Origin: an uncultured Nocardioides sp.
GTDB taxonomy: Bacteria > Actinomycetota > Actinomycetes > Propionibacteriales > Nocardioidaceae
DNA: 64,000 nucleotides
Assembly (NCBI GenBank): GCA_964487275.1
Contig: CAZAQE010000028.1
Location: 262-64,261 of the forward strand
Reading direction: 5' to 3'
Shown here: in pieces, positions 6,090-22,042 of the stretch
Layout of the letters: each line of letters begins with the position of its first letter
How positions within the stretch are numbered: position 1 is the first letter of the stretch
Program-made: the position numbers and the translations under genes
Notes under the pieces: model-generated
What the model saw: only the letters and a program-made list of their open reading frames with translations
What the model was told of the DNA's origin: nothing
Database searches by the model: none

Positions 6090-7061
6090 TCAGGAGCGAC
6101 GGAGCGCGGTGATGGTGAGCACCAGCCGCTCCAGCGCGTACGACGCGTCGCTGGCCGCGCCCTTGATGTCGGCGTCGGCCTGGGCGACCGCGCGGATCGC
6201 GCGGGACAGGCCCGCCTCCGACCAGCCGCGGGCCTGGTCGCGCAGCGAGCGCAGCTTCCACGGCGGCACACCCACCTCGCGAGCGAGGTCGGCATCGCGC
6301 ATCCCGCGCGGGGCGCTCACCAGCCGGGCCAGGCCGCGGGCGCTGCCCGCGAAGGCGGAGGTGATCAGCACGGCCGCAGTGCCGGCGTCGAGCGCCCAGC
6401 GGAGCTCCTCGAGCGCAACCTGGCCGCGCCCGGCGAACGCCGCGTCGGCGACCGCGAAGGACTTCGCCTCGGCGCGGCCACCGAAGTAGCGCTTGACTTG
6501 GGACTCCCCGATCCGCTCCCCCGGGAAGTCGTTGGCGAGCTGGCTCGCCGCACCGGCCAGTGAGCGCAGGTCGCGACCGATCGCCTCGATGAGGACGTCG
6601 GCGGCGTCGCGGTCGAGCGTGGCGCCGTGGCGTCGTACCTCGTTGGCGACGAAGGCGGGGAAGTCGGAGGGCTTCAGCTCCTCGGACTTGTGCTCCGTGA
6701 CGGGCGGGAGCTTGCGGAGCTTGGTGAGCACCCCGCTGCCCTTCTGCCCTCCGCCGTGGACCAGGACGAGGGCGACGTCGTCGGCCGGGGCACCGGCGTA
6801 GGCGAGGAGGCCGTCGACGGACTCGTCGGGCAGGTTCTCCAGGCCGCGGACGACGACGCAGCGCACGGCCGAGAACAGCGACGGGGCCGCCATCTCGCCG
6901 AGCGAGGCGAGCGTGAGGTCGGCCGCCGCGGCGTCGGAGAACTCTGCCTCGGCGTCGTGCTCACGCACGGCGGCCTTGACGTCGTCGACGGTGCGGGCGC
7001 CGAGGAACTCCTCCTTGCCGGTGACCAGGATGACCCGTCCCAACACGTCAGCGGCCCGCAT
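6090..7061 (-). CDS. holA: DNA polymerase III subunit delta
   Basis: Track ORF 6090..7097 trimmed to the ATG at 7061 (MRAADVLGRVILVTGKEEFL). Length, composition and position downstream of comEC are typical of actinobacterial holA. Confidence 0.88.
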   Translation of the reverse strand: MRAADVLGRVILVTGKEEFLGARTVDDVKAAVREHDAEAEFSDAAAADLTLASLGEMAAPSLFSAVRCVVVRGLENLPDESVDGLLAYAGAPADDVALVLVHGGGQKGSGVLTKLRKLPPVTEHKSEELKPSDFPAFVANEVRRHGATLDRDAADVLIEAIGRDLRSLAGAASQLANDFPGERIGESQVKRYFGGRAEAKSFAVADAAFAGRGQVALEELRWALDAGTAAVLITSAFAGSARGLARLVSAPRGMRDADLAREVGVPPWKLRSLRDQARGWSEAGLSRAIRAVAQADADIKGAASDASYALERLVLTITALRRS

Positions 7062-7106
7062 GGGAGACACCTTCCCACACGCTCCCGACACGAGCACCGG
7101 CGGCGG

Positions 7107-8696
7107 TCACCGGGCCACGACCCTCGGTCCGGCTCCCCCGGCGACGACCGCGACATCGCCCTCCTCGTCGGTCCGGTGCACCTCGGCGCCGGCAGCACGG
7201 AGGCCGTCGAGCAGGTCGGGTGCCGGGTGGCCGTAGTCGTTGTCGGCACCCACCGACACCAGCGCGAGCTCCGGGCGCAGCGAGGTGAGCCAGCGCTCGT
7301 CCTGGTGACGGCTGCCATGGTGGGGCACCTTGAGGACGTCGACGTCGAGGCCCGGGAGCAAGCGGGCGAGTTCGGCCTGGCCGGGTGGCTCGATGTCGCC
7401 GGTGAGGAGCAGCCGGAGCCCGGCGACGTCGACCACGAGCACCACGCTGGCATCGTTGGCGGAGCTGCCGTCGCCCGCCCCCGGCACCGGCACGGGGACG
7501 TCCGGGTGCACGACCTGGATCGTGGCCGTGCCGACCCTGCGGGTCGCGCCGTACGACGCCCTCCGCACCGGCACCCCCGCCCGGGCCGCCACTTCGCGGA
7601 CCTCGTCCACCGCCGCCGGCGGGTCCAGCACCGAGGTCACCTCGACGGCACCGACGCGGCGTCCACGCACCACCCCGGCCAGGCCGTCGACGTGGTCGGC
7701 GTGGAAGTGGGTCAGCACGACGAGCGGGACCTGCTCGACACCGAGCCGGTCGAGACAGCCGTCGACGGCCTCCGGATCGGGGCCCGCGTCGACCACGACC
7801 GCGGCTCCCGGACCGACCGACACCGCGAGCGCGTCGCCCTGCCCGACGTCGCAGGCCACCAGCACCCAGCCCGCCGGCGGCCACCCGAAGGAAGGCGTCG
7901 ACCAGATCCGGCCCGGCACCCCCAGGACGACCAGCAGGAGCAGCACCGCGAGCGAGACACCCCACGCCCGGTGGCGCACGATCCGGGGCAGGACGACGGC
8001 GACCGCGACGCAGAGCCCGACGAGCAGCAGCACGGCCAGCGGCCCGGTACCCCATGCGACCGCCGCTCCGGGCAGGTCCGCACCACGCTCGGCGACCGCG
8101 ATGATCCACGCGACGCACCACGCCGCGCCGGTGCCGACCACCCGGCCGGCAGCCGGGAGCACCAGCCCGACCAGCCCGCCGAGCAGGCCGAGCACGGTCG
8201 CCGGTCCGACCGCCGGACCCGCGAGGAGGTTGGCCAGCACCGCGACCAGGCTGACCTGGCCCGACAGCACCGCCACGACCGGCGTGCAGGCCAGCTGCGC
8301 GGCCGTCGGCACCGCCACCGCCTCGGCGAGGCCGCGGGGCATCCACCGGGAGAGCGCCTCGGCCAAGGGCGGGCCCAGCAGCACGATCCCTCCGGTCGCG
8401 AGGACCGAGAGCGCGAAGCCGGCCGACGTGGCGAGCGCGGGATCGACCAGCACCAGCACGACCAGCGCGACACCGAGCGCCCGCAGGCCGCGACGGCGCC
8501 CGTCCGGCCCGAAGGCGAACAGCCCGACCGTGCCCATCGCCGCCGCTCGCAGCACGCTCGGCTCCGTGCGGGCGAGCAGGACGAACCCGATGATCCCGGC
8601 GAGGCCGACGAGCACCAGCCAGCGGCCGCGGACGCCGACCGCCCGGGCAGCCAGCAGCAGGGCCCCGACGACGAGGGTCAGGTTGGTGCCGGACAC
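7107..8696 (-). CDS. comEC: ComEC/Rec2 3' fragment (competence membrane domain plus metallo-beta-lactamase domain), separated from its 5' part by the insertion
   Basis: 529 aa with many TM helices and MBL motif THFHADHVDG...VPHHGS. The frame stays open upstream to 8720 (CGLTHLTAVSGTNL), so the GTG at 8696 is only a nominal start. Confidence 0.9.
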   Translation of the reverse strand: MSGTNLTLVVGALLLAARAVGVRGRWLVLVGLAGIIGFVLLARTEPSVLRAAAMGTVGLFAFGPDGRRRGLRALGVALVVLVLVDPALATSAGFALSVLATGGIVLLGPPLAEALSRWMPRGLAEAVAVPTAAQLACTPVVAVLSGQVSLVAVLANLLAGPAVGPATVLGLLGGLVGLVLPAAGRVVGTGAAWCVAWIIAVAERGADLPGAAVAWGTGPLAVLLLVGLCVAVAVVLPRIVRHRAWGVSLAVLLLLVVLGVPGRIWSTPSFGWPPAGWVLVACDVGQGDALAVSVGPGAAVVVDAGPDPEAVDGCLDRLGVEQVPLVVLTHFHADHVDGLAGVVRGRRVGAVEVTSVLDPPAAVDEVREVAARAGVPVRRASYGATRRVGTATIQVVHPDVPVPVPGAGDGSSANDASVVLVVDVAGLRLLLTGDIEPPGQAELARLLPGLDVDVLKVPHHGSRHQDERWLTSLRPELALVSVGADNDYGHPAPDLLDGLRAAGAEVHRTDEEGDVAVVAGGAGPRVVAR

Positions 8697-8699
8697 CGC

Positions 8700-8724
8700 C
8701 GTCAGGTGGGTCAGACCGCACTAG
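8700..8724. repeat. attL junction: shared core TGGGTCAG (8707..8714) plus element-side half-site CGCACTAG (8717..8724)
   Basis: The core is identical to 22381..22388. The half-site is the reverse complement of CTAGTGCG at 22365..22372. Confidence 0.75.
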
Positions 8725-8742
8725 AAGGCAACAACCACTACG

Positions 8743-10206
8743 ATGCTAAACGTGACCGAGGCCCTTGCGCGGGAGTACCTGCGAGTAAGTACCGACAAGA
8801 GTGGCCGCGGCGCGTCTGTCGCTCAGCAACACGACGAGAATCAGCGTGCCGCCGAGAGCCGCGGTTGGCGCCTGCTGCCGCCCTATAGCGAGCCTGAGGC
8901 GGTCTCGGCGTCGCGTTACTCCCGCAAGGCCCGTGAGGCGTTTGGCGACTTGCTCGAGGACATTGAATCAGGGTCGTTCGGGGCCGACGTCCTCGTTCTG
9001 TGGGAGGCGTCGCGGGGTTCCCGTCGCACGGGCGAGTGGGTCGACCTGATCGACGTCTGCGCCAGTCGCGACGTAAGGATTCACGTCACCTCCCACGGTC
9101 GGACCTACGACCCGACGAACCCCCGCGACCGCCGGACCCTTCTCGAGGACGCCGTTGATAGTGAGTACGAGTCCGCAAAACTCAGCGGCCGAGTCAGTCG
9201 CGCACTCGCCGCCAACGCGAGTGCTGGCCGTCCGCACGGGCAGATCCCCTACGGATACCGCCGCGTGTACGACGATCGCTCCGGTGCGCTGATCCGCCAG
9301 GAGCCCGATCCGGCAACCGCGCCGAACATTGCCGAGTTGTTCGCCCGCGTCCGTGCCGGCGACTCATTGCGCAGCATCGAGCGGGACTGGGCTGCGCGGG
9401 GCATCGTGAACAAGTCCGGTCGCCCCTTCGGTTCTGCGCACCTTCGCTCACTACTCGACGTTCGGGCCTACGCCGGTGACCGAGTGCACGGGAACCAAGT
9501 GCATGCCGGCGACTGGGAGCCCATCGTCGAGCGCGACACTTGGCAAGCCGTGCGAGCGATCCTCAGCGACCCGGCCCGGCGGACCAACCGGCCGGGCCGC
9601 GGCATCTACAAGGTGTCCATGATCGCCCGCTGCGGCGTCTGCGAAGGCCCGATGGCGGGAGACGCCAAAGTCGACGGACGCCGCCGAACCGAGCCCGTTT
9701 ACAGATGCCGCAACAACCACGTCACAGTTCCCCTCGCCAGCCTGGACCAACATGTCGAAGAAGTCGTCAGCGCGTACCTATCCCGCCCCGAAATCCGGAC
9801 GGCACTGTCAGCCGCCGCGGTGGAAAGCGGCGAGCTCCAAGCAGCACGGAACCGCGTGGCGAGACTCAAGGGCGAGTTAGACGACCTCTACGAGCGTGGC
9901 GCAAGCGGACAGATCTCGCCGGCAGGCGTGGCAGCGATGGAACCGGGCCTCCTAGGCCGCCTGAGCGGCGCTCAGGCCGACCTCGAGGCGCTACAGACCC
10001 CGAGTGCGCTCGTCGGCATCCTCGGCCGCGAGAGCGGTTCTGGAACGTCGCTGGGGGACCTGACCGTCGAGCGTCTTCGCGCAATCTACGACCTTGTCTG
10101 CACCCCTGACCTCCTCGGAGTTCCGCACGTCAACAGGTCATCCCGACGAGGGCCGAAACAACCCCCGGTTCGCGACCGAGTCGAGTGGCGACGCAGCTCG
10201 GACTGA
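8743..10206 (+). CDS. large serine recombinase (phage-type serine integrase)
   Basis: 487 aa. Resolvase catalytic N-domain (YLRVSTDKSG, VLVLWEASRGSRR), recombinase domain, zinc ribbon (CGVCEGPM...YRCRNNH) and a C-terminal coiled coil. Starts about 20 bp from the attL core. Confidence 0.95.
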   Translation: MLNVTEALAREYLRVSTDKSGRGASVAQQHDENQRAAESRGWRLLPPYSEPEAVSASRYSRKAREAFGDLLEDIESGSFGADVLVLWEASRGSRRTGEWVDLIDVCASRDVRIHVTSHGRTYDPTNPRDRRTLLEDAVDSEYESAKLSGRVSRALAANASAGRPHGQIPYGYRRVYDDRSGALIRQEPDPATAPNIAELFARVRAGDSLRSIERDWAARGIVNKSGRPFGSAHLRSLLDVRAYAGDRVHGNQVHAGDWEPIVERDTWQAVRAILSDPARRTNRPGRGIYKVSMIARCGVCEGPMAGDAKVDGRRRTEPVYRCRNNHVTVPLASLDQHVEEVVSAYLSRPEIRTALSAAAVESGELQAARNRVARLKGELDDLYERGASGQISPAGVAAMEPGLLGRLSGAQADLEALQTPSALVGILGRESGSGTSLGDLTVERLRAIYDLVCTPDLLGVPHVNRSSRRGPKQPPVRDRVEWRRSSD

Positions 10207-10600
10207 CGAGGCCAGGAGAACAAGATCCTCGCCATCCACAGCAAGATCTACTCGAAGTACAACAGCCAGCAGCCGGCCCAACCACCAACTCGATTAAGCG
10301 GCGCCAGTGGGCGTGTTCTGAGTGCGAATCGTGGCGGCGCCGCGCCTGCTAGATGCGCCTTTACGGGCACGCGTAGGTGCGCCCTGGGGACGAACGGGCC
10401 TCGTATGCAACACGCGCGTTAGTACGATTTTCCATGGAGGCGCCGGAAGATTCCGGCAAGGCTCCGCGCGCGGTTGGAAGAGCCGTCAGGACTGACCAGA
10501 CTGTCACCGCGCCGAGGGTTACAACCCGGTCGACTTGTCCCGGTCCCCTTGGAAAGACGCGACCGACCAGCCCCCACCCACAGACATTCACCTTCGCGAT

Positions 10601-10640
10601 CCGGGGGCGGTCACTTCCGCCAAGAAACTCCCGCCCCCGG
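10601..10640 (+). promoter_or_regulatory. 10-bp-stem hairpin CCGGGGGCGG-N20-CCGCCCCCGG just upstream of the first rightward gene
   Basis: Perfect inverted repeat read from the sequence. It lies within the 466-bp non-coding gap after int. Confidence 0.3.
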
Positions 10641-10671
10641 CTCGCTCCGTCCACTCCAAAGGAGCGACCTG

Positions 10672-10881
10672 ATGACAGTAGCCCCTTCTGCAACCCTCGA
10701 CCGAACTCGGCCGCGCTGGGCAGGCCCCACGGCCGCGGGCCGGTACATCGGCGTCACGGATCGCACGATCCGTAACTACATCGCGCGCGGACTCCTAACC
10801 GCCTATCACCTTCCCGGCTCAAACCATGTGCGGGTCGATCTGAACGAGATCGACGCCCTCATGGGAGCCGAGCGTGACTGA
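10672..10881 (+). CDS. excisionase-family HTH DNA-binding protein (69 aa)
   Basis: ATG at 10672 preceded by AAAGGAG. Segment YIGVTDRTIRNYIARGLLTAYHLPGSNHVRVDLNEID fits the MerR/Xis-type HTH_17 pattern. Confidence 0.7.
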   Translation: MTVAPSATLDRTRPRWAGPTAAGRYIGVTDRTIRNYIARGLLTAYHLPGSNHVRVDLNEIDALMGAERD

Positions 10882-11020
10882 GGCCGAGGCGAATCGGAGG
10901 CATGCCGCCTCAGTAGCCATGAGCGCTCCCGCTCCGTCGATGGATCAGCTCGAGCGGTTGGCGCGACTCCTGCGACCGACCGAGCCCTCCCCTGCCCTCT
11001 TGACTAGTGAGGCCGCGTGA
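10874..11020 (+). CDS. possible small ORF (48 aa)
   Basis: GTG overlaps the end of the previous gene. Its TGA overlaps the next start (GTGATG). Below the track threshold and has no recognisable domain. Confidence 0.3.
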   Translation: MTEAEANRRHAASVAMSAPAPSMDQLERLARLLRPTEPSPALLTSEAA

Positions 11021-11238
11021 TGAAGCGCCTCACTGTCGCCACTGTCACTCCCGCGCTCGACGTCTGGAACGGGTACGGCAGCCGCGACCTGCTCGAGCAG
11101 CACCGCGGCCGGCCTCCGGTCTGGTCGTCGAACCCCCGCGGCTGGGTCGCTCAGCCGGCCAACCGTGCTGACCTCATCGCCCTCGCCGAGCTCCGTGGAT
11201 TCGACGTGCGGGTCGAGGAAGCCGAGGTGGTCCGGTGA
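11020..11238 (+). CDS. hypothetical protein (72 aa)
   Basis: Track ORF 11017..11238 (GTG 11017 or ATG 11020). Stop overlaps the next start (GTGA). Confidence 0.5.
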   Translation: MKRLTVATVTPALDVWNGYGSRDLLEQHRGRPPVWSSNPRGWVAQPANRADLIALAELRGFDVRVEEAEVVR

Positions 11239-11504
11239 CCGATCCAGACCGCTTCTTCCGCGATCTGATGGCCGACTGCATGGCCGACGCGCTCGCTCAC
11301 CAGTGGCGAGAACGAGCCGACGTCATCAGAGCTGCTCGACCAAGGGAAGGCGATTACCTGGGGCAGAGCACAGTCGACGACCAGCGGGCACGGTGGCACC
11401 GCATGACCGCGATGGCCGCCGCTTGCGACGCCAAGGCCACCGTTGTCGCACGCGTGATGTTCCCGGAGATCGAGGACTTCCCCTTTTGGGAGGAGGCCGC
11501 GTGA
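11235..11504 (+). CDS. hypothetical protein (89 aa)
   Basis: Track ORF with overlapping GTGA junctions on both sides. Confidence 0.5.
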   Translation: MTDPDRFFRDLMADCMADALAHQWRERADVIRAARPREGDYLGQSTVDDQRARWHRMTAMAAACDAKATVVARVMFPEIEDFPFWEEAA

Positions 11505-12055
11505 GGGACCGCCAGAAGAAGATCGACTTCGAGCTAGACGAGTTCTCAGCCCACCGCAACGAGCACTGGAACGACAAGGCGGCCAACCCCCGGCACCCGC
11601 TCGCCCTCCGGGTCTACTTCGCCGCCCTCGGCCATCGTCGAGTCGGTGGCCACGCACCCTTCACGACGGGCGAGCTGGCCGAGTTGCTGGTGAACACCGA
11701 CGCGGTGATCCCGGACCGTCGCCGGGTGGCCGAGGCGATCCGGCAGTGCGTCCAGTGGGGCTACCTGGCGGAAGGCAGCAACGCCCTGTGTCTGGTGGTT
11801 CCGCTCGACGACGTCCAGGGCGGTCGGGGGCAGGAGTACCGCTGCCGCCGCAGCCACAGCAAGCGCGCAGCACAGGCCCATGCTGACGGCTGCGACTGCC
11901 CCCGCTGCTCACATGTGTCCGTGCCCAAACGGACACATGCCCCCGAAGTGTCCGTGCTCAACGTGGACACATTGCCCCTAGGTGTCCGCTTCCAGCCGGA
12001 CACCTCAAGCGGTGGCTCTCTCTTCTCTCTACCAACCCACGAGGAATCCGCATGA
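11501..12055 (+). CDS. hypothetical protein with a probable winged-helix DNA-binding domain (184 aa)
   Basis: Trimmed from track ORF 11165..12055 to the GTG at 11501, which is coupled to the previous stop. Segment FTTGELAELLVNTDAVIPDRRRVAEAIRQCVQWGYLAEG looks like a wHTH. C-terminus has CDCPRC. Confidence 0.5.
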   Translation: MRDRQKKIDFELDEFSAHRNEHWNDKAANPRHPLALRVYFAALGHRRVGGHAPFTTGELAELLVNTDAVIPDRRRVAEAIRQCVQWGYLAEGSNALCLVVPLDDVQGGRGQEYRCRRSHSKRAAQAHADGCDCPRCSHVSVPKRTHAPEVSVLNVDTLPLGVRFQPDTSSGGSLFSLPTHEESA

Positions 12056-12159
12056 GCGTCCAAATCCAATCCTGCGAACACCCGGCCGACGACCCGCGCT
12101 GGACCTGTTCCGCCTGCATCACCCACCTCGCCGCCGACCTCGACGGGAGTGACCGATGA
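12052..12159 (+). CDS. possible Cys-rich mini-protein (35 aa)
   Basis: ATG at 12052 overlaps the previous TGA, and its stop overlaps the next ATG. Sequence MSVQIQSCEHPADDPRWTCSACITH.... Confidence 0.35.
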   Translation: MSVQIQSCEHPADDPRWTCSACITHLAADLDGSDR

Positions 12160-12509
12160 ACGTCATCGGCGTCGAACACCTCACCCTCGAAACCCGAGAC
12201 CCCATCCAGCCGACGCTCGCCCGTTACGGCTTCGACCTCGGCCACCAGCACATCGGCCGCGACGACGTCTCCGTAGCCGTGTTCCGTGCCTCTGAATGCT
12301 TGGGGCTGGCGTCCCAGCCGCCCGCGTGGTTCGGCGTCGAGGAGCAGCCCGAGGACGCTGCTGCCTACTACTGGTGCGCCACCCCAGACAGCGACGACCG
12401 GCCTGCCGGTGCCCCGCTGCACGTCTCGACCACCGTGCCCTACCTCGAGCCCCGCTACGGCGACTCCTGGATCGCTTTCGTCGTCGAGATCCCCGAGACA
12501 GAGGAGTAG
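12156..12509 (+). CDS. hypothetical protein (117 aa)
   Basis: Track ORF, translationally coupled to the upstream mini-ORF. Confidence 0.5.
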   Translation: MNVIGVEHLTLETRDPIQPTLARYGFDLGHQHIGRDDVSVAVFRASECLGLASQPPAWFGVEEQPEDAAAYYWCATPDSDDRPAGAPLHVSTTVPYLEPRYGDSWIAFVVEIPETEE

Positions 12510-12513
12510 GCCC

Positions 12514-12831
12514 GTGCTCAGCAGCGAACAGCCTCGCCTCGCCCCCGACGACCTCGACCGCGCCAAGGATGCGTTCAACCACAGCCCCGCCTGTCAGGGC
12601 ACCGTCTGGGCCAGCTACGTCAACCGACTCGGCTCCCCGATGCTCCGATGCCGCGGCTGCGAACGTATCGTCCCCGTCGCCCGGCTCCTCGATCAGCTCA
12701 GGGAAGTCCCTCTCCGGCGCTACGTGATGCCCTGCATCCGCTGCGACCAGGACATCCGGCTCTACCGACCCAAGCCCCGCATCCCGCTGCACGAGAGCTG
12801 TGCTCGTAGGCGGCGCCAGGAGGGCCGCTGA
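12514..12831 (+). CDS. zinc-ribbon-like Cys-rich protein (105 aa)
   Basis: Trimmed from track ORF 12286..12831 to the in-frame GTG at 12514. Paired CxxC motifs (CRGC ... CIRC). Confidence 0.45.
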   Translation: MLSSEQPRLAPDDLDRAKDAFNHSPACQGTVWASYVNRLGSPMLRCRGCERIVPVARLLDQLREVPLRRYVMPCIRCDQDIRLYRPKPRIPLHESCARRRRQEGR

Positions 12832-12832
12832 G

Positions 12833-13219
12833 GTGCGATGGACGTTCCTGGCCGACGGGACGCCGTGCGTCGTCCTTGCGGCCGATGACAGCCTCTCCGA
12901 GCTTGTTGCGCTTGTCGACAGGACCGACCGCGCCACCGCCTACGCAGGCCGTCTCCCGTCGCCTGCGGCCGGACAGTTCGTGCGCCTTGGGCGGCACGTT
13001 CTCGCGGTTGCCGCACTGGTTCCGCAGCGGGAACCAACCACCGCGTCAGGGGCCTCCGGATCGGCACGATGGATCACAACGAAGGAAGCCGCAGACATCC
13101 TGCGAGTCACCGAGCGAGCCGTGCGCAAACGCATCGCCAACGGGTCACTCACGGCCCAAATGCTCGGCGGTCGCTGGCTCATAGACCTCAAGGAGATCCC
13201 CAATGCTGCAGCCGCATAA
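12833..13219 (+). CDS. protein with C-terminal excisionase-type HTH (128 aa)
   Basis: GTG at 12833 lies 9 nt after AGGAGG (the track start at 12800 is also possible). C-terminus WITTKEAADILRVTERAVRKRIANGSLTAQMLGGRWLIDLKEI. Confidence 0.6.
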   Translation: MRWTFLADGTPCVVLAADDSLSELVALVDRTDRATAYAGRLPSPAAGQFVRLGRHVLAVAALVPQREPTTASGASGSARWITTKEAADILRVTERAVRKRIANGSLTAQMLGGRWLIDLKEIPNAAAA

Positions 13220-13979
13220 CCCGCTTCTCGACACCTACCGCACCCTGAGCGGCAACGTGGTCGAGCTCGGCCGGGGCCTGTTCCCCGAGTTCACCTTTGC
13301 GAACGACGGCACCCCGGACTACATCCGCCGCGCCAAGAACGAGTGGCAGTTCATCCCGCGGCAGCTCAAGGTCATCGACGACACCCTCACGGAGCTTGGC
13401 GAGACGGTCGTCCAGATCAGTTTCGACGGCCGGCTCAGCGCACAGGCGAAGGCCGACGACCTCGCTTCGGCCACCGCCTCGATCAAGGCCAAGATCGACG
13501 CGGCGACAAGCGATGTCAGCACTCGTGCGGCGCATGTTCTCGACATCATGAAGACCGCGGCCTATCCCGCCCGCCCCGGCACCCCGGACGCGGCGCAGGA
13601 GGCCCGCATTGCAGGGATCAAGGCAGACCTACGGATGGTCTGGGACGTGCTCGAGTCCGACGAGGAGTTCGTCCCGGCGATCACCGAGTCACTCCGTCGT
13701 GCGATCGGTGACGGAGACGACCTCCAGTCCTGGCTCATCGCGTCAACGAGGTGGCCCGAGGACTACCTCCGCGCTCGAGGGGCCGAGTACCGGATCCGTC
13801 AGCTCCAGAGCGACCTCGCCTCAACTCTCGACGCCCACACGCCAGCCAACCTCGCCGAAGCACGACGCATCTACGCCGTCCTCGCAGACGGACGCCACGG
13901 ACTGCCGCTGCTCACGGTCCTGTTCGACCACCTCGACGGCATTGTCGACGACCTCGCCGCATGGCGGGGCGCCGCCTGA
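13203..13979 (+). CDS. hypothetical protein (258 aa), largest unassigned ORF of the element
   Basis: ATG lies 7 nt after AGGAG. Acidic and helical. No motif recognised. Confidence 0.55.
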   Translation: MLQPHNPLLDTYRTLSGNVVELGRGLFPEFTFANDGTPDYIRRAKNEWQFIPRQLKVIDDTLTELGETVVQISFDGRLSAQAKADDLASATASIKAKIDAATSDVSTRAAHVLDIMKTAAYPARPGTPDAAQEARIAGIKADLRMVWDVLESDEEFVPAITESLRRAIGDGDDLQSWLIASTRWPEDYLRARGAEYRIRQLQSDLASTLDAHTPANLAEARRIYAVLADGRHGLPLLTVLFDHLDGIVDDLAAWRGAA

Positions 13980-14107
13980 TGGACGGGGCATGCCGATCCT
14001 GCGAAGCGACCGAGTGCCCGACCGGCTGCGTGCGGCTCATCCAAGCCGACCGCCACGTCTGCGGGGCCAAGTGCTGCGACGACTGCACCCACACCCCTGG
14101 GGGGTGA
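13979..14107 (+). CDS. Cys-rich mini-protein (42 aa, 9 Cys)
   Basis: ATG overlaps the previous TGA (TGATG). Sequence MDGACRSCEATECPTGCVRLIQADRHVCGAKCCDDCTHTPGG. Confidence 0.4.
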   Translation: MDGACRSCEATECPTGCVRLIQADRHVCGAKCCDDCTHTPGG

Positions 14108-14203
14108 CTCCCCTCGGACCCCGAATCGAGGACTGTGGGTGAGGGCGCTCCGAGGTGCGGCACGCATTCTCGCTCGTTTTCCGATGACCATGAAGGAGGC
14201 CCT

Positions 14204-14671
14204 GTGGCCGCCGAATCAGCCCCTGAGGGCCACCCTGAGCGCCTTGCGCCCGCGGGTCTGAGTGCGCGGGCCGGCGAGTTCTGGGCGCGCATCCAGGACG
14301 AGTTTGAGCCGTCCGACGCCGAGACTGAGTTGCTGGTTGAGGTGGTGCAGACGATCACCGAGATCGACTCGTTGAAGGCCGCCCTGACTGCTGACGGTGT
14401 CTCGGTGCAGGGCTCAATGGGTCAGAAGCGCGTTCACCCGGCAGTCAATGAGATCCGACAGCACCGGATGGCATTGGCTCGGCTCCTCAAGCAGCTCGAT
14501 CTCAGCGACGAGGAGCCGGAGACGGAGGCGACCAAGGCGGCTCGCCGTGCCGCTCAGGCGCGCTGGTCTCAGTCCCGTGGCCGAGACCGGGCGCGGATTG
14601 CTGAGAACGGCCCTGCGTTACCCGAAGATCCGGAGGTAGCGGCCCTCAAGAAGTGGATGCAGGGCGCATGA
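14204..14671 (+). CDS. phage terminase small subunit, P27-family-like
   Basis: GTG at 14204 follows GAAGGAGG. Segment GLSARAGEFWARIQDEFEPSDAETELLVEVVQ...ADGVSVQGSMGQKRVHPAVNEIRQHRMALARLLKQLDL follows the P27 TerS layout. Confidence 0.6.
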   Translation: MAAESAPEGHPERLAPAGLSARAGEFWARIQDEFEPSDAETELLVEVVQTITEIDSLKAALTADGVSVQGSMGQKRVHPAVNEIRQHRMALARLLKQLDLSDEEPETEATKAARRAAQARWSQSRGRDRARIAENGPALPEDPEVAALKKWMQGA

Positions 14672-14832
14672 GGCGCCGTGAGAAGCAGCCCCCTCCGGAG
14701 CCTGAGCCGCCAGCGGAGGAGCGACAGTCGGACGTCCGCGACCGATTTCCCGTCCACTGCTCTGAGTGCGGCGCCGGCCCGCTCCCGCGTCCGTGGCGCG
14801 GAGGTGCGCGATGCCCGAACCACGCCCGCTAG
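14668..14832 (+). CDS. possible zinc-ribbon mini-protein (54 aa)
   Basis: ATG overlaps the TerS stop (ATGA). Sequence ...FPVHCSECGAGPLPRPWRGGARCPNHAR. Below the track threshold. Confidence 0.35.
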   Translation: MRRREKQPPPEPEPPAEERQSDVRDRFPVHCSECGAGPLPRPWRGGARCPNHAR

Positions 14833-14929
14833 CCGCGACGCCTCACTCGCTCAAGCGACAGGGCACTGTCCCCCCGTGGTACGGGGGCGCGCCCTGCCGC
14901 ACTACGACCGTACTTCCGAAGGAGAACCG

Positions 14930-15196
14930 ATGACCAGCGAGATCCCACCTGAGGTGGACGAGTATCTGATCGCCCTGCCGGCCGAGGTGAAGGAGACCTT
15001 GCTCGACCTGGTAAAGATCGCAGCCGACACGGACGTCGCCGGCAAGCACTACCTCATGAGCTGGACTATCGAGGTCTCCGAGTTCGCGCTGGCCGGACTC
15101 CGGGTGCGCGAGGACGCCACGATCGCACGTCTGCTCGCGACGGTCGGGCAGCTCCTTGCCGCGATCTACCGCAACGACGCGAAGGAGGTGGCGTGA
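14930..15196 (+). CDS. hypothetical protein (88 aa), positionally like a tail assembly chaperone
   Basis: ATG at 14930 follows GAAGGAG. Stop overlaps the tape-measure start (TGATG). Confidence 0.45.
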   Translation: MTSEIPPEVDEYLIALPAEVKETLLDLVKIAADTDVAGKHYLMSWTIEVSEFALAGLRVREDATIARLLATVGQLLAAIYRNDAKEVA

Positions 15197-18006
15197 TGGC
15201 TGTTCGTCGCGAGCGGGTCATTCTCGACCTCCAGGACGATTTCAGTTCGGGCATGGTTCGGGCTGCTGGTGCGACGGCGATGCTTCGTCGGGAGCTGCGT
15301 GACCTCGATGGGATGTCGGTCCGGATCACGCAGACGTTCAACGACAACACTCGTGGCGTCGATCAGTTCTCGCGGTCGTTGGATCAGTCGGGGCGGTCGA
15401 TCGACCGTTATTCGGGGCGCCTGGCGGCGTTGGCGCAGGCGGGTCTCGTCTTCGGTCCGGGCGCTATTCCGGTCACCGCGGTCGCTACCGCTGGTGTCGC
15501 GGGCCTTGCGTCTCAGCTTGGTTTCGCGGCGATCGGCATGGGGTCGCTGGTGGTCGCGACTCGTGGCGTGGGTGACGCCCTCAAGGCGCTGAATGAGGCC
15601 GCTCTGGAGCCCACTGCGGACAACATCGAGAAGGCGCGCGTCGCGATGGCCGAGCTCGGGCCCGAGGCGCAGCAGTTCGTTCTCCGCTTCCAGGAGCTCC
15701 GCCCGGTTCTCGGTGACCTCAGGGACGCTGCTGCCGCTGGCTGGTTCCCTGGTCTCACTGAAGCGCTCGACCATTTCGAGCTCGTGGCGCCCCGCGTCGC
15801 GTCCCTCTTTGAGGCACTGGGCCGCGCAGGAGGCCAGCTCGTGGCCGAGGGTGCTGAGGCGCTGGCGGGTGGCGAGTGGGCAGAGTTCTTGTCGTTCGTC
15901 GAGCGCGAGGGCCCTGAGTCGCTCGAGCAGCTCGGTCGTTCAGTGGGCAATGTCGTACACGGGCTGGCCGAGCTCTGGATGGCGTTCGCCCCTCTCAATG
16001 ACGACTTCTCGACGTGGCTACTCAACGCCAGCAGGGACTTCGACGCCTGGGCCGCAGGGCTCGCGCAGACGCAAGGGTTCGAGGACTTCATCGAGTACGT
16101 TCGCCGCGTCGGTCCGCAGGTCGGCCAGACGCTCGGCGCCATCGCGGAATCGGTCGTGTCCATCGTGGAGGCTGCGTCCCCGCTCGGCGGACCTGTCCTC
16201 GAGGCGTTCGAGACCATCGCCGACCTCGTCCGGGCGATCGCGGAGTCCCCGGTGGGGCCGAAGATCTTCACGATGGCCGCCGCCTTCTTGGTCCTGAACA
16301 AGACGCTTGCGGTTACCGCCGGACTGCTGGCGCGGACGGGTTTCGTCGGTGCAGCGGGTGCGCTGCGCAACGCCGGTCCGGCGGCTGGGACTGGTGCTGG
16401 CCCCGGTGCGCCGGGTGTCCTTCCCATCGCTTCGCGAGTGACGGCGACACGTACCGCCTTCGGTCAGCTCCGGACCGACCTGACCGCACTCCGCAGCGCG
16501 ACGATGGCGCAGCGCAACGCCAGTACGTCGCTGATCGCGGCCCAGGCGCGCGTGAACACAACAATGCGGCAGTACGGCTCGACCGTCGCTAAGGCCGGCG
16601 CGGGCGCTGGTGCCTTCGCCGTTGCCACTGGCGCGATAGGCGGCGGCCTTGGGCTGCAGAACACCGCCATGCTCGGTCTGGTTGGCACGATGGCTGGCCC
16701 GTGGGGCGCTGCCGTCGGTGCGGGCATCGGGTTGACGATCGACCTCGCAAACGCGACCGGCCAGTACGCCGACGCGCAGGAGCGAGCGAACGCGGCGGTG
16801 AAGTCGAACAACGTCGAGCAGATCACTGCGGCGATCGCCGAGCAGCGCAAGATCCTCGCCGGCGCGATGGACTCCGACAAGGTCACCGGAGTTGGGGACT
16901 TCTTCTCCGACGTCGGCCGCGGCCTGACCGGTGGCGGTGGCGCAGACGTGAAGGCTCGCGCCAAGAAGCAGATCGCCGAGCTCGAGGATGCTCTCCGTGG
17001 CGTGAGGAAGGAGACCCTTCTGGTCGCCCGGCAGGAGCAGATCACCCTCTGGGCCGAGGCGGTCAGCGAGGAGTTCTTAAGCCTGGGCAGGGCGATCGAC
17101 AAGCCGACGCTGAGCCTCGACCGGCTCATGAAGCGGATGGAGAACCAGGGCCGCGCAGCGAGGGACATGGGGAAGAACCTCCGAGAAGCCCTCGCGAACG
17201 GTGCTGATCCTGAGGCGTTGCAGCGGCTCATCGATGAGCTGGGCCCGCAGGCAGGCCTTGTCCTCGAGCAACTGGCGAAGGGAGGCGAAGATGCCGCCGC
17301 GCGCTTCAACAGGGGGTGGGGCAGGACTCAGAACCTTCTGGCGATCCTCGAGAAGGCGATTGAGGATGTGGGCGCTGCGGTCAACCGGCTGCCGGACGGA
17401 AAGATCATCAAGATCGACGCGGACACCCGCCGCGCCGCCCGAGCGATCGACCGCATTCGCGAGGAGGCCAAGTCCGTAGCGAAGGACTGGCAGGTCCGCT
17501 TCATCGTCACTCAGACCAACCGGATCAACAAGCCGGAGATCAACGGGCCGGGGTCGCCTCAGAACTACGCCACCGGGGGCTACACGGGCTGGGGTGGCAA
17601 GTATCAGCCGGCGGGCATCGTCCACCGCGGCGAGGTTGTGATCCCGCAGGAACTGGTCGCTCGCGACCGCGACCTGCTTCGAAACCGCTACGGCCACCTT
17701 CCCGGCATGGAGCAACTGCACTCGGGAGGTATGGCGGGATACACGCAGGCCGAGGCAGTTGCTCGATCGCGCGCAGCTCTGGCGGCCTCTGCCCAAGCAG
17801 TTCGGATGTCGTCTAGTAGTGCGCCGGCAGTGAACGTCACGACCCAGCTCTCCCGCGACGACCTTGACTACCTGGCCGAACGGCTCGAGCGGGCTCGTCC
17901 GATGTACGGCGACGTGCACATGGCGCCGCACGACTACAGCGAGTTCCGCAGGCAGATGGCCGATGACCGTGCGCGGATGCAGCGCGGGGGGTTCGGGCGT
18001 CGCTGA
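15196..18006 (+). CDS. phage tail tape measure protein
   Basis: 936 aa. Long Ala/Gly-rich helical protein with internal Gly-rich hydrophobic segments. The C-terminal motif YATGGYTGWGGKYQPAGIVHRGEVVIPQ is common in siphovirus tape measures. RBS GAAGGAGG lies 7 nt upstream. Confidence 0.8.
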   Translation: MAVRRERVILDLQDDFSSGMVRAAGATAMLRRELRDLDGMSVRITQTFNDNTRGVDQFSRSLDQSGRSIDRYSGRLAALAQAGLVFGPGAIPVTAVATAGVAGLASQLGFAAIGMGSLVVATRGVGDALKALNEAALEPTADNIEKARVAMAELGPEAQQFVLRFQELRPVLGDLRDAAAAGWFPGLTEALDHFELVAPRVASLFEALGRAGGQLVAEGAEALAGGEWAEFLSFVEREGPESLEQLGRSVGNVVHGLAELWMAFAPLNDDFSTWLLNASRDFDAWAAGLAQTQGFEDFIEYVRRVGPQVGQTLGAIAESVVSIVEAASPLGGPVLEAFETIADLVRAIAESPVGPKIFTMAAAFLVLNKTLAVTAGLLARTGFVGAAGALRNAGPAAGTGAGPGAPGVLPIASRVTATRTAFGQLRTDLTALRSATMAQRNASTSLIAAQARVNTTMRQYGSTVAKAGAGAGAFAVATGAIGGGLGLQNTAMLGLVGTMAGPWGAAVGAGIGLTIDLANATGQYADAQERANAAVKSNNVEQITAAIAEQRKILAGAMDSDKVTGVGDFFSDVGRGLTGGGGADVKARAKKQIAELEDALRGVRKETLLVARQEQITLWAEAVSEEFLSLGRAIDKPTLSLDRLMKRMENQGRAARDMGKNLREALANGADPEALQRLIDELGPQAGLVLEQLAKGGEDAAARFNRGWGRTQNLLAILEKAIEDVGAAVNRLPDGKIIKIDADTRRAARAIDRIREEAKSVAKDWQVRFIVTQTNRINKPEINGPGSPQNYATGGYTGWGGKYQPAGIVHRGEVVIPQELVARDRDLLRNRYGHLPGMEQLHSGGMAGYTQAEAVARSRAALAASAQAVRMSSSSAPAVNVTTQLSRDDLDYLAERLERARPMYGDVHMAPHDYSEFRRQMADDRARMQRGGFGRR

Positions 18007-18142
18007 CTAGTGTCAAGCAGTACGACTACAACGACCTTCTGGGCGAGATGGAGCATGTCCGGCGGTCTTGACAGGTACGGGCGTGCGGCGGCCAAAGCGG
18101 TGCGAGCGTAGTTCTGTCCCGGTAATCTGCGCCCATGGTCGG

Positions 18143-18183
18143 CACCCATCCCTCTCCTCGAGCGTTGCGCTGAGGGATGGGTG
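18143..18183 (+). terminator. 12-bp-stem hairpin downstream of the tape-measure gene
   Basis: CACCCATCCCTC-N17-GAGGGATGGGTG. No U-tract. Confidence 0.35.
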
Positions 18184-18325
18184 CGCACAACGCCGCGAAG
18201 GCGCATAGCGCCGTCTGCCAGGCGGTCCGATCGTGGCGCTGATCGCTCAGCCGCCAGGGGTTCGTGCCACCCGCGACGGCGGGAAGTGGAAGTTCGCGCG
18301 TGGGATCACTGGCTCAAACTTCGTG

Positions 18326-18706
18326 ATGAACGACTTCGCAACCCTCGAAGCCCGGCTGGGCGCGCGGGTTCTCGAAGTGGTTAAGGCGGAGTTGTTTTTC
18401 AAGATGCGGCAAGCCGAGTTCGGGCGGCTCGCTTACGGGCGCGGACCCGAGTTTGACGTAGAGCAGATGGCCGCCGCCCCTGACGTGCTGGAGCTTCGCT
18501 TGTCCGATCGAAGCGGCGACGACGAGAACCTCCTGCACATGCGGTTCTTCTTTTCGGAGCCACTCGATCTTCCCGGTTCACTGGTCGGCCTCGGCCTGCT
18601 CTGGAAGCGACCGGGTGGGATCGATCAGGAGATGCAGACCCAGACGGCCCTGCGTGCCTCGCTTCGGCTGCAGGAGTACACGCAACGAGAGGACTACGGA
18701 TTGTGA
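18326..18706 (+). CDS. RelE/HigB-like (Gp49/DUF891-type) toxin candidate (126 aa)
   Basis: Track ORF 18233..18706; the ATG at 18326 is preferred. Segment VLELRLSDRSGDDENLLHMRFFFSEP...LVGLGLLWKRPGG...Q..A resembles the ELR...YR..YF...KK pattern of Gp49-like toxins. An XRE gene follows. Confidence 0.45.
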   Translation: MNDFATLEARLGARVLEVVKAELFFKMRQAEFGRLAYGRGPEFDVEQMAAAPDVLELRLSDRSGDDENLLHMRFFFSEPLDLPGSLVGLGLLWKRPGGIDQEMQTQTALRASLRLQEYTQREDYGL

Positions 18707-18713
18707 GATTCCC

Positions 18714-18729
18714 GTCAACCGACGTTGAC
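18714..18729 (+). promoter_or_regulatory. palindrome GTCAAC-CGAC-GTTGAC in an A/T-richer spacer upstream of the XRE gene; candidate operator
   Basis: Perfect 6-bp inverted repeat. A second palindrome TCATATGA lies at 18751..18758. AGGAGG is at 18761. Confidence 0.3.
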
Positions 18730-18772
18730 CTGTTGGCTATGATCAATAAGTCATATGACAAGGAGGTGTGAC

Positions 18773-19162
18773 ATGGAGCTAGAGGAGCTTCTCGGGATCG
18801 ATCTGCGAAACCCGCTGCAGATGCGGGCTAAGCGGATGGTGGAGGCCGACGAGAACTTTCTTGACGAGCTTGTCCGCCTGCGAAAGGCGAAGGGCCTGTC
18901 TCAAGAGGTCGTCGCCGACAGGATGGAAATCTCCCAGAGCGCGGTCGCGCGCATCGAGTCTGGAGAGCGCGATCCTCGTCTTTCGACCCTTCGGCGCTAT
19001 GCGATGGCGGTCGGCGCCGTCTACTCCCACACTGTCGACGATGACGAGCCGCGGATCCTGAAGACTCCCATCGGGGGCGAGCATCGCTCGATGGAAGACC
19101 CTTGGCCCGCAGTCGAGCGGCCGAAGATTCACCGAGGCAAGGTGCCGAGCGCAGGTGCCTGA
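18773..19162 (+). CDS. XRE-family HTH transcriptional regulator / antitoxin candidate (129 aa)
   Basis: ATG at 18773 lies 6 nt after AGGAGG. HTH_3 motif LRKAKGLSQEVVADRMEISQSAVARIESGERDPRLSTLRRYAMAVG. Confidence 0.8.
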   Translation: MELEELLGIDLRNPLQMRAKRMVEADENFLDELVRLRKAKGLSQEVVADRMEISQSAVARIESGERDPRLSTLRRYAMAVGAVYSHTVDDDEPRILKTPIGGEHRSMEDPWPAVERPKIHRGKVPSAGA

Positions 19163-19634
19163 TCCGCGCTTTGGAGAAGATTGGCCCGATGCGTTCATCG
19201 GTGGATACGCGATCAGCCGACTACTCCGCCGTTCGGACCACGAGAACGACGAGCCCGGCATGGCCTGGAAGATCTATCCGGCCATCTTCGAGTTCGACGG
19301 GGACGATCCGGCCAACCGGCCGACCTTGGCCATCGTCGGGGACTTCACGCTGTGGGCTGGCTCGGAGTGGGCCGGCGTCCGAGCGCATGCCAACCTCTTC
19401 GTCAGGGATGTCGAGCCACTGACTGACGATGAGTGGCAGGCTGCCAATGAACTCACCGTGCAGCATGTCGATTGGTTGGAGCGCGGCCTGTACGACTTCG
19501 TCGCTCAGGCCATGCGCGCGATGATGGCGAGCGGGTCAGGCCTCACTGTTCCCAGGAGCACGCCAGACTATGAACTCCTTCTCGTGGACATAGACGAGGT
19601 CGTGAACGACAGCGGCTTCCGGGATGCCGACTAG
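19155..19634 (+). CDS. hypothetical protein (159 aa)
   Basis: GTG start overlaps the XRE gene by 8 nt. No recognisable domain. Confidence 0.5.
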   Translation: MPDPRFGEDWPDAFIGGYAISRLLRRSDHENDEPGMAWKIYPAIFEFDGDDPANRPTLAIVGDFTLWAGSEWAGVRAHANLFVRDVEPLTDDEWQAANELTVQHVDWLERGLYDFVAQAMRAMMASGSGLTVPRSTPDYELLLVDIDEVVNDSGFRDAD

Positions 19635-19640
19635 GCTGGC

Positions 19641-19952
19641 ATGACCGGGCGAGGCGGCTACAAGCAGACCGACGGAATCGTCGTCGCCCGCCTCTGCGGC
19701 ACGTCACGTCAACTAGCAACCGGGCACGCCGAGGATGACGAAGCGATCGCCGAACTCCAGGCAATCACGACCCGCGTCGAGCTGTTGAGCCAGGCTGCCG
19801 GCGTCTGCATGGCCCAGCACCGTTACAGCGCCGCGGTCCATCCGTTCGCAAGTCGGTCGGCGGACCTGTTGTTCGCTGCTGGCGCTGACCTCGAGTTGGC
19901 CGAGAAGCAGGCTGCACTGTCGCTCGCCTCATTGAATGGCAACCGCCCCTGA
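19641..19952 (+). CDS. hypothetical protein (103 aa)
   Basis: Starts 6 nt after the previous stop. A hairpin (GCCCCTCGG ... CCGAGGGGC, about 19957..19997) follows. Confidence 0.45.
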   Translation: MTGRGGYKQTDGIVVARLCGTSRQLATGHAEDDEAIAELQAITTRVELLSQAAGVCMAQHRYSAAVHPFASRSADLLFAAGADLELAEKQAALSLASLNGNRP

Positions 19953-20098
19953 GTGCCCCTCGGACGCTTGGTTGTCTCTCCGCCCACCCGAGGGGCTGTC
20001 CTTTCTCGGGGACGCGACGACGCTACGACGAGCAGCGACCCAAGAGGAACAGTTCGGATCCTCTGATTTGCGTCGGAGTCCGGGCCTAGGGTGCCGGC

Positions 20099-20551
20099 AT
20101 GAAGTCCTCACGTGCTCTGGTGGCGGCCCTGGTTGCGATCGGGTTGCTGGCTGTGGGGCTTGCTGCCGCCTTGGGGATCGTCCTCGCAAACGATGATTCG
20201 GACGACTCGCCCAGCAGGGCTAGCGACGTGTCGTCTGAGACGTCGGAGTCTCCGATGTCGCCTCTCCGGCCTGCGTGGCTCGCGTGCCGCGACTTTGACG
20301 AGGACGGCACGGTGGCGCTGACGGACGAAGACCAGTCGATCGTCATCAGCACGGGTCAGTACGGATCGGGTGTCGCGGCGGACTGCATCCTCGACCAACT
20401 TGAGGTCTCGGAGGCCATCCGGTCACAGGTGGACCACACCACGGCGATGATGGGCGTCCAGACTGCGGATCAGGATGGCCTCGCCTACCAGTGGTCGTAT
20501 CACCCCGACAACGGCCTGAATATGACCATCACGGTGGACGGATCCGAGTAG
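20099..20551 (+). CDS. membrane-anchored/secreted hypothetical protein (150 aa)
   Basis: N-terminal signal/anchor MKSSRALVAALVAIGLLAVGLAAALGIVLA, an acidic Ser-rich linker, then a globular domain with 2 Cys. Confidence 0.6.
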   Translation: MKSSRALVAALVAIGLLAVGLAAALGIVLANDDSDDSPSRASDVSSETSESPMSPLRPAWLACRDFDEDGTVALTDEDQSIVISTGQYGSGVAADCILDQLEVSEAIRSQVDHTTAMMGVQTADQDGLAYQWSYHPDNGLNMTITVDGSE

Positions 20552-20566
20552 CCGGACCCCAGGACG

Positions 20567-20791
20567 CTAGTTGTTTGGTCGCCGCCGAGCGCTCGCCGCC
20601 CTAGCAGTTCGCGCAGGCGTGACCGCCTGCTTCGCGATGATCTCCTCGACCATCCCGTCGGTGAACCGCCACACCGACCGCTTCGGCTTCACGCACGGCC
20701 AGCCGCCACCAGGGCGACACTTCATACGGACGTCGTCGACCGTGATTCCCAGAAGGTCGGTCAACTCGACGTCGGTGAGCAGCCTGTTCAT
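20567..20791 (-). CDS. excisionase/AlpA-type HTH protein (74 aa)
   Basis: Track ORF trimmed to the ATG at 20791 (MNRLLTDVELTDLLGITVDDV...VWRFTDGMVEEII). Paralogue of the adjacent gene. Confidence 0.6.
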   Translation of the reverse strand: MNRLLTDVELTDLLGITVDDVRMKCRPGGGWPCVKPKRSVWRFTDGMVEEIIAKQAVTPARTARAASARRRPNN

Positions 20792-20805
20792 CTCTTCAAG
20801 CCCTC

Positions 20806-21036
20806 TCAATCACGGCGACGTTCCCGAGCGCCGGGAAACATCGGCTTCACCTCTGGCGCCGGCGTGACTAGGTGGCGCGCCAGGATCTCCCGGACCTGCT
20901 CTTCGGTAAACCGCACCGTCTTGCCCAGCCGGTAATGAGGCCACCCCTCGCTCTTGCGGAGCTGAACGACGGTCGAGAGCGGCATGTTTAGCCGCTCTGC
21001 GAGGTCGGCGTGCGTGAGCAGGCGATTGCTGTCCAT
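20806..21036 (-). CDS. excisionase/AlpA-type HTH protein (76 aa)
   Basis: ATG at 21036 (the track start at 21042 is TTG). Sequence MDSNRLLTHADLAERLNMPLSTVVQLRKSEGWPHYRLGKTVRFTEEQVREIL. Confidence 0.65.
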   Translation of the reverse strand: MDSNRLLTHADLAERLNMPLSTVVQLRKSEGWPHYRLGKTVRFTEEQVREILARHLVTPAPEVKPMFPGARERRRD

Positions 21037-21056
21037 GGCCAACAGAGAACAGCATC

Positions 21057-21266
21057 GTGCTCATGCAGAACTACCTGACCCCCGAGCAAGCCGCCGAACT
21101 CTTGCCCTTCGGCAATCCGGATTGGATCCGTGCCCAGCTCCGGGCTGGTCGTCTGCGTGGCTCGAAGGTCGGTGGCCGCTGGCTGGTGGAGCCGGCCGCT
21201 CTCGAGGAGATGGTCTCGGCCGGCTCCAATCAGCAGGTCAGACGTCGGCGGCGCCGTACTACTTGA
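21057..21266 (+). CDS. excisionase-type HTH protein (69 aa), divergent from 20806..21036
   Basis: YLTPEQAAELLPFGNPDWIRAQLRAGRLRGSKVGGRWLVEPAALEEMV with an Arg-rich tail. Start is GTG 21057 or ATG 21063. Confidence 0.6.
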   Translation: MLMQNYLTPEQAAELLPFGNPDWIRAQLRAGRLRGSKVGGRWLVEPAALEEMVSAGSNQQVRRRRRRTT

Positions 21267-21360
21267 CTGTCGCGAGGATGCGGGCGATCTCCTCAACCTG
21301 CTGGTCGGTGATCGGCGGCAGACTGGCGACGAACGCAGCCGCCCTCTCTTCGGGAGTCAT
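21259..21360 (-). CDS. possible mini-protein (33 aa)
   Basis: ATG at 21360 within track ORF 21259..21471. Sequence MTPEERAAAFVASLPPITDQQVEEIARILATVK. Confidence 0.3.
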   Translation of the reverse strand: MTPEERAAAFVASLPPITDQQVEEIARILATVK

Positions 21361-21392
21361 GCTCGGATCCTTGTCTCTCGTCCGCGGCTCAG

Positions 21393-21761: not shown

Positions 21762-22018
21762 CGGACGACCCTCAGGTTGGCGCGACCGGCCGGCCGGTCG
21801 TCGTCGCGGACATACCCGTAGGCCCCCGCCTCGCGCCCGAGCTCGAATGCCCGTCGGACCTGACGGCTGTAGGTCTTGTTGAAGTGCACCACGAGGGGGC
21901 CGACAACGAATCCCGCTCCGGAGCTGTGGGGCAGGGCCTCACGAACGCACCAGCGCACGCGGGTCAGGATGGGGGTAGCGCTTTCGAGCGCAGCAGTAGT
22001 ACCGTTTAGTTCAGACAT
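21758..22018 (-). CDS. hypothetical protein (86 aa)
   Basis: Track ORF, first sizeable gene of the leftward module. Confidence 0.5.
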   Translation of the reverse strand: MSELNGTTAALESATPILTRVRWCVREALPHSSGAGFVVGPLVVHFNKTYSRQVRRAFELGREAGAYGYVRDDDRPAGRANLRVVR

Positions 22019-22042
22019 TGTGTTCCCTTTCGGAACGCCCGG

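Follow-up and report, generated by a model that had tools for sequence, protein, structure and literature searches.

The 64,000-nucleotide stretch of DNA analyzed here, called the window in what follows, comes from an uncultured Nocardioides sp. (assembly GCA_964487275.1, contig CAZAQE010000028.1) and contains a 13.7-kb element that was put into the competence gene comEC by a large serine integrase, a well-supported conclusion that makes the element an ordinary new example of its kind. The element occupies positions 8715-22380 (13,666 bp without the core copies), and its ends are given by the sequence and by the joint of an empty site. An earlier note on this DNA had proposed these boundaries and the core that marks them, and had assigned the attachment sites to a serine rather than a tyrosine integrase. 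Both proposals are borne out, the first by 29 uninterrupted comEC genes and a natural empty-site contig, the second by the domains of the integrase, by its profile and fold matches and by the lack of any tyrosine recombinase on the contig. Integration by the element's own large serine recombinase, with a leaderless promoter of the integrase gene (int) as the preferred reading of its expression, is the best explanation overall and one that we hold with good confidence.

An 8-bp core, TGGGTCAG, which can be read directly, bounds the element on both sides, with one copy in attL (8707-8714, forward strand) and the other in attR (22381-22388, forward strand), and the G+C content is about 0.64-0.70 inside the element vs. 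0.73-0.80 in the flanks. To the left lies the 3' part of comEC (7107-8714, reverse strand), severed from the 5' part, in which the stretch 7107-8696 bears the ComEC Competence and metallo-beta-lactamase domains. To the right lies the 5' part (22365-23123, reverse strand) with the N-terminal DUF4131 domain, the frame of which stops at a TAG within the P arm of the attachment site, four codons into the element. Joining 8714 to 22389 yields a single open comEC frame of 791 codons. The gene is unbroken in all 29 loci compared, from 29 species of the same genus, and these align without insertion or deletion across the junction.

An empty site with these exact ends exists in nature. Contig joints and depths were compared in the wastewater metagenome that is the probable origin of this genome, where one contig links 8706 to 22381, the eight ambiguous bases being exactly the core and 13,674 bases being skipped, and where the neighboring contigs end at 8714 and 22381, as expected at the point where the occupied and empty paths branch. 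Depth is about 262 in the flanks, 216-232 in the element and 67 in the short empty-site contig, and therefore the element is missing from roughly one in six to one in four chromosomes of the sample. The flanks of the occupied and empty forms show no differences over at least 1 kb.

The same data hold several points that weigh against an element that still moves. The empty-site contig could stem from cells that never acquired the element and not from excision, no circle-junction joint of attP occurs among the 15 joints listed for the metagenome, the attP junction is likewise absent from the genome's own assembly, and the depth of the element, which is below that of the flanks, gives no sign of a free or replicating form. 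These points suit a fixed remnant, in which the integrase or a partner factor is dead, the empty site comes from a sister strain that has always lacked the element, and the symmetry of the attachment sites is historical. To them can be added that no capsid, portal or large-terminase gene is recognizable in the element with PHROGs, and that the 5' end of the integrase gene appears frameshifted in the related metagenome locus L049. A remnant is nevertheless unlikely in view of an intact integrase reading frame with all the invariant residues of the family, of two perfect attachment-site arms, and of the identity of the flanks in the occupied and empty forms, which indicates a very recent gain or loss.

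The recombinase is encoded by int (8743-10206, forward strand), the only long reading frame at the left end of the element. Its product (487 aa, catalytic Ser16 in REYLRVS, alternative start at GTG 8752) is a canonical large serine recombinase and the sole recombinase candidate in the element. Pfam recognizes the Resolvase (PF00239, E 2.7e-21) and Recombinase (PF07508, E 2e-11) domains and, below threshold, the zinc ribbon PF13408 (20.1 bits vs. a cut-off of 25.3). In an alignment of 32 homologues, R10-E-Y-L-R-V-S16 is invariant, as are Cys297, Cys300 and Cys322. When compared with solved structures, the profile of the homologue alignment finds SPbeta SprA/YokA (E 7e-22) and the A118 integrase (E 1e-7); phmmer with the single integrase protein against PDB sequences gave no match. 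The predicted model (mean pLDDT 82) consists of a catalytic domain, a long helix, a recombinase domain, a beta-rich zinc ribbon and two long antiparallel coiled-coil helices, with beta strands at 303-330 followed by helices at 363-388 and 393-418, and Foldseek matches it over its full length to the SprA, Bxb1 and PhiC31 integrases (E about 1e-19 to 1e-20). All eight matches to the tyrosine recombinase family PF00589 (Phage_integrase) in the genome lie on other contigs, with none on the contig of the window (C28). Integrases of sequenced phages are at best 36% identical to this one, and an integrase search of viral contigs returned no relative; the protein is new, though the kind of system is already known.

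When the ends of the element are joined, attP reads CTAGTGCG-CTTCATCA-TGGGTCAG-AC-CGCACTAG, where CGCACTAG (8717-8724) and the reverse complement of CTAGTGCG (22365-22372) are identical, so that the two form a perfect inverted repeat of 8 bp with 18 bp between its arms. The chromosomal flanks, when joined, give attB as CCGGAC (8689-8694)-N27-GTCCGG, and the two sites differ from each other and share the 8-bp core. The core, the repeat arms and both joined strings are as the earlier note had them and can be read directly in the sequence. If the half-sites extend over 25 bp, as described for the structure of A118 (PMC3783163), half-site P of attP would cover 22357-22380, with its repeat arm at 22365-22372, and the element-derived part of P' would cover 8715-8732 (9-26 from the axis), with its arm at 8717-8724. 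The B half-site of attB, antisense of comEC, would cover 8683-8706 (CCGGAC-ACCG) and show weak symmetry with B', the part of which beyond the core would cover 22389-22406 (CGGT-C-GTCCGG), all four being given on the forward strand. CG at positions 10-11 from the attP axis is common to all four half-sites.

The symmetry of the sites was measured by scoring complementarity around every possible axis, against a null taken from the remainder of the window. The attP axis comes to lie at the left edge of the core, after the T and before the first G, where there are 13 matches of 25, a perfect run of eight and a local maximum. Perfect runs of at least eight are found at 0.07-0.12% of axes, and the chance of such a run at any axis in the 8-bp core is 0.005 under the element null and 0.009-0.018 under the chromosome null. 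The attP dyad, which the earlier note had placed within the shared core, is thus where it was said to be, and it is real and exceeds chance. From the position of its axis, TG (8707-8708 and 22381-22382) is predicted to be the central dinucleotide at which crossover takes place; it is present in attP and attB and is non-palindromic, as the mechanism requires. The arm pattern of attP was also looked for in viral contigs, which gave two unrelated hairpins only, neither with a related integrase.

For attB, a dyad on the same central point had been claimed as well, and this part is not supported. The claimed 6-bp repeat is centered on a base, its spacer being odd, and so misses the attP axis by half a base. 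A 6-bp run at one of the in-core axes is matched by about 15% of chromosomal positions, the level of chance in a high-G+C chromosome, and the attB dyad was therefore rejected as evidence. At the attP axis, attB shows 10 matches of 25 without a gap (P 0.20) and, with the axis fixed, 14 of 25 with one 1-nt gap (P 0.05). The latter corresponds to a better description of attB, CCGGAC-ACCG ... CGGT-C-GTCCGG, with ten matching bases and one bulge. Chance-level symmetry in attB counts against our explanation, and so does the placing of the crossover: the sequence by itself does not locate it within the 8-bp identity, and the choice of TG depends on the attP axis only, at the very edge of the core.

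The arrangement in the window is not confined to it. The closest integrase homologues (P0002-P0009) are 70-81% identical, and the 72%-identical integrase of locus L049 has its element at the corresponding place in comEC, where the P' arm is conserved, ACCGCA(C/T)TAGA...CAA, of which ACC....TAG....CAA is kept in L049 and in another relative, L050. The 5' end of the L049 integrase gene (L049:150-170) appears one base short with respect to the window and L050 (GAGTAT-TACGCG), by a frameshift or an assembly error. More distant relatives resident in comEC come from a Gordonia genome (48% identical), a Microbacterium genome (41%) and two metagenome contigs (43%). They insert within the codons for HLTAVSG.N of ComEC at other positions than the window element, and the Gordonia element, of about 27 kb, has the opposite orientation. 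The int start lies about 23-28 bp from the crossover in all these comEC relatives, and the tight layout of attP and int is therefore a property of the clade.

In the circular form, a 42-aa hydrophobic reading frame that reads inward from the right end (22212-22340, reverse strand, coordinates read from the sequence; GGAGG 8 nt before its GTG) would diverge from int over a 76-bp gap, most of which is filled by attP. Such a location would also suit an operator or an RNA hairpin of the two divergent genes, the position of the 8-bp repeat around the core being then coincidental. The Gordonia attP speaks for this in one respect and against it in another. It has an 11+7-bp inverted repeat with a 40-bp spacer, and the int start codon lies in the right arm; this much longer repeat, 21-38 bp from the center and beyond the 25-bp half-site, overlaps the int start codon. 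It is, however, centered on its own 3-bp core, and the axis thus falls within the core here as it does in the window. Moreover, the 18-bp spacer and the arms at 10-17 in the window match the description of serine-integrase attP sites (PMC5311408), and the reconstructed attP of the Microbacterium relative, which has no strong dyad, suits the imperfect symmetry of a protein site better than a conserved hairpin, so that an operator or hairpin origin of the repeat appears very unlikely. In its own right, the Gordonia site (L047:9960-10020 with L056:1440-1510) contains an 18-bp inverted repeat, GACGCGACCAT(G)ACTCATA, that covers the ribosome-binding site of int as well as the start codon, further out than a standard half-site.

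In the mechanism that we propose, the element's own integrase would join an attP of about 50 bp (approximately 22357-22388 with 8715-8732) to an attB of about 40-50 bp lying where comEC encodes its conserved motif GLTHLTAVSG. The integrase would occupy these imperfectly symmetric sites as two dimers, break both strands at the central dinucleotide (TG by our prediction), rotate and religate, to give attL and attR as products that share only the 8-bp core. Excision would restore comEC exactly and, we infer, should need a separate directionality factor. Several small excisionase-like genes with a helix-turn-helix are present in the element at 12800-13219 and 20806-21042 (the latter on the reverse strand). 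The int gene starts immediately beyond the predicted P' half-site, an arrangement shared by many serine-integrase cassettes of actinophages.

This arrangement fits the published descriptions of serine integrases point for point. In these, attP usually adjoins int, at 18 bp upstream of it in phiJoe, and is 45-50 bp long, its inverted repeats lying about 20 bp apart (PMC5311408), and the attP of A118 is pseudo-palindromic, each half-site being 25 bp long, and has a central dinucleotide (PMC3783163). Streptomyces phage phiJoe is alike in having an actinobacterial large serine recombinase, an attB inside a host gene, and an attP that does not exceed 50 bp, in which a spacer of about 20 bp separates imperfect inverted repeats and a central dinucleotide is present; its 18 bp between attP and int recurs here as the distance from the repeat arm to the ATG. 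It is unlike the window system in that the protein is only distantly related, whereas here the target is comEC and the carrier is a 13.7-kb element without recognizable head genes. The Listeria A118/LI integrase (comK; structure 4KIS, PMC3783163) also splits a competence gene, also has a pseudo-palindromic attP with 25-bp half-sites, and combines recombinase and zinc-ribbon domains with a coiled coil, but the host phylum is another one and the target is the regulator comK instead of the channel comEC. The zinc-ribbon motif would be expected to stand 5 bp apart in attP and attB, and such a shift is not recognizable here. In the survey of large serine recombinases by Durrant et al. (2022; PMC10083194), as in our case, the sites were inferred from element boundaries vs. 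empty sites; DNA competence genes were strongly enriched among the targets, and distantly related integrases shared one conserved target gene. Here that single gene is comEC, and the integrases are 41-72% identical. The term "ComEC" is absent from the main text of that survey, and a literature search found no direct report of a serine integrase in comEC of Actinobacteria.

How int is transcribed in the integrated state is constrained by its position. No start earlier than the ATG at 8743 is possible, since an in-frame TAG (8722-8724, within the repeat arm) precludes it, and the core ends 28 bp, and the repeat arm at its outer end 18 bp, ahead of this ATG, with the dyad axis at a distance of 35 bp; the distance of about 20 bp from the core given in the earlier note is thus loose. 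With 28 bp before the ATG, its statement that integrated int has almost no upstream DNA of the element is accurate, whereas its conclusion that the promoter must be rebuilt across attP or be supplied by antisense comEC does not follow, there being a third option that the sequence favors. CTAG occurs in each repeat arm (8722-8724; 22365-22367), with the effect that a TAG stop faces outward-in at both ends, and the same TAG motif that ends the frame of the comEC 5' fragment also bounds that of int.

The third option is a candidate –10 box, TACGAT (8739-8744, forward strand), 7 nt before the in-frame GTG at 8752, its function being putative. Mycobacteria and other actinobacteria have many –10-only promoters, and leaderless mRNAs that begin at AUG or GUG are common in them. 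Sequences of the form TANNNT on the forward strand number ten in the whole element, and TACGAT is the single one within 8400-8800; when the window is aligned with L049 and L050, neither the T, A and T of the hexamer nor the GTG changes, while the surrounding bases vary. A self-contained –10-only promoter at TACGAT, with a leaderless int mRNA that starts at GTG 8752, would stay intact in both the integrated and the excised states, and we put it forward tentatively, with a chance a little short of even. The –10 boxes of the divergent gene pair near 21040-21063 were considered as an internal control and set aside, as they offer only CAGCAT-N7-ATG, which is too weak.

Other observations speak against a leaderless start. 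The proposal is based on three related sequences, and a stringent scan for sigma-70 promoters, like one for terminators, found nothing at either end of the element. The closest relative, P0002, retains an 'ML.V' N-terminus, GAAGG stands 14 nt before the ATG of the window, and ATG 8743 may be the true start of int. L050 has AGGAG-N7-ATG, which fits a leadered start, and the distant relatives that have clear ribosome-binding sites need transcription from at or beyond the crossover. This last point leads to the possibility that the promoter switches with the state of the element, as the earlier note had proposed, int being silent or driven by the host when integrated and its promoter being assembled or brought in across attP once the element is circular. 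In L047, L046, L051 and L052, GGAGG or GGGGG stands 6-9 nt before the starts and the crossover-to-start distance is about 23-28 bp, and their transcripts must therefore begin at or beyond the crossover; the 28 bp of element DNA ahead of the ATG in the window points the same way, as does, by our own reading, a weak CAGAGA-N17-CATCAT on the P side of attP, which is absent from attL. This candidate across attP is, however, a poor match to consensus, neither the P side of attP nor 8400-8738 has a TANNNT on the forward strand, and the failure to find a sigma-70-like promoter at either end bears on a switching promoter too. For this subclade, the conserved TANNNT-N6/7-GTG inside the element is the simpler solution, and switching, although less likely than not, is a serious rival.

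Precedents for such switching come from other mobile elements. The integrases of ICEKp1 and ICEclc are tyrosine integrases. Work by Lyras and Rood from 2000 on Tn4451 and its TnpX, cited in PMC13023037, reportedly points toward promoter switching too. In ICEKp1, ICEclc and Tn4451, as in the window, the integrase gene is at the edge of the element, so that its upstream DNA changes on excision, and state-dependent integrase promoters are documented for ICEKp1 and ICEclc (PMC13023037). Unlike in these two, no state-dependent promoter was found here, and the self-contained –10 box is the better candidate.

A second hexamer of the TANNNT form, TAGCAT (8748-8743, reverse strand), overlaps the –10 candidate of int and points out of the element, facing the comEC 3' fragment and then a gene with a DNA polymerase III delta C-terminal domain (6090-7097, reverse strand). 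An equivalent box is present in L050 and missing from L049. TAGCAT could offset a polar effect of the insertion. A more far-reaching idea is that attP, lying in the 76-bp divergent control region, lets integrase bound at attP, attL or attR gate transcription, and that the element, given the roughly 20% of empty sites among the chromosomes sampled, acts as a reversible switch of comEC like the Listeria comK prophage and not as a passive insertion. We regard this as very unlikely. If it were true, integration would rewire int, the inward operon at the right end (behind the comEC 5' fragment) and the outward TAGCAT box, and the latter could drive the comEC 3' fragment together with the downstream essential gene holA.

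As for the rest of its content, the element has a small-terminase-like gene (14135-14671) close to a 937-aa tape-measure-like gene (15193-18006), and by its sequence it appears to resemble a phage satellite or a reduced prophage.

Some relatives of the integrase are found at targets other than comEC. L050, with a 74%-identical integrase, breaks a gene read as an IS3-type transposase at TGGTCAA (L050:2543-2640), a junction that may be a secondary site or reflect a shifted specificity; TGGTCAA resembles the core of the window. The 63%-identical integrase of L045 abuts an HNH-endonuclease gene, and the integrases of L045 (9850-10000), L063 and L006 come directly after HNH-endonuclease genes with the motif H.HH...W..GG.T, a target that we take to be similar to the 13E12-repeat target of Mycobacterium tuberculosis phiRv1. 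Several relatives of 30-44% identity interrupt a gene read as a CpaF/TadA-like ATPase. In the genome of the window itself, contig C32 (L013, L014) has two more serine recombinases, about 31% identical, that abut a putative CpaF/TadA-like secretion ATPase, and the same abutment is seen in the relatives L004, L007, L008, L010 and L061 (gene motif ...GGTQAGKTT.LN...GERVVS.EEVFEL). From these sequences, the CpaF/TadA-like ATPase gene looks like another recurrent target of serine integrases.

The layout described here, with attP beside int, a short core and a symmetric attP, is already in the literature and resolves no open question. What the window adds is a well-delimited natural attP/attB pair for an uncharacterized actinobacterial serine integrase, the boundaries of which are confirmed by an empty-site contig, and such pairs are a starting point for building orthogonal integration tools for high-G+C bacteria. 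With it, the actinobacterial comEC joins the competence genes that serine integrases favor, related integrases striking one conserved ComEC motif at positions and in orientations that vary.

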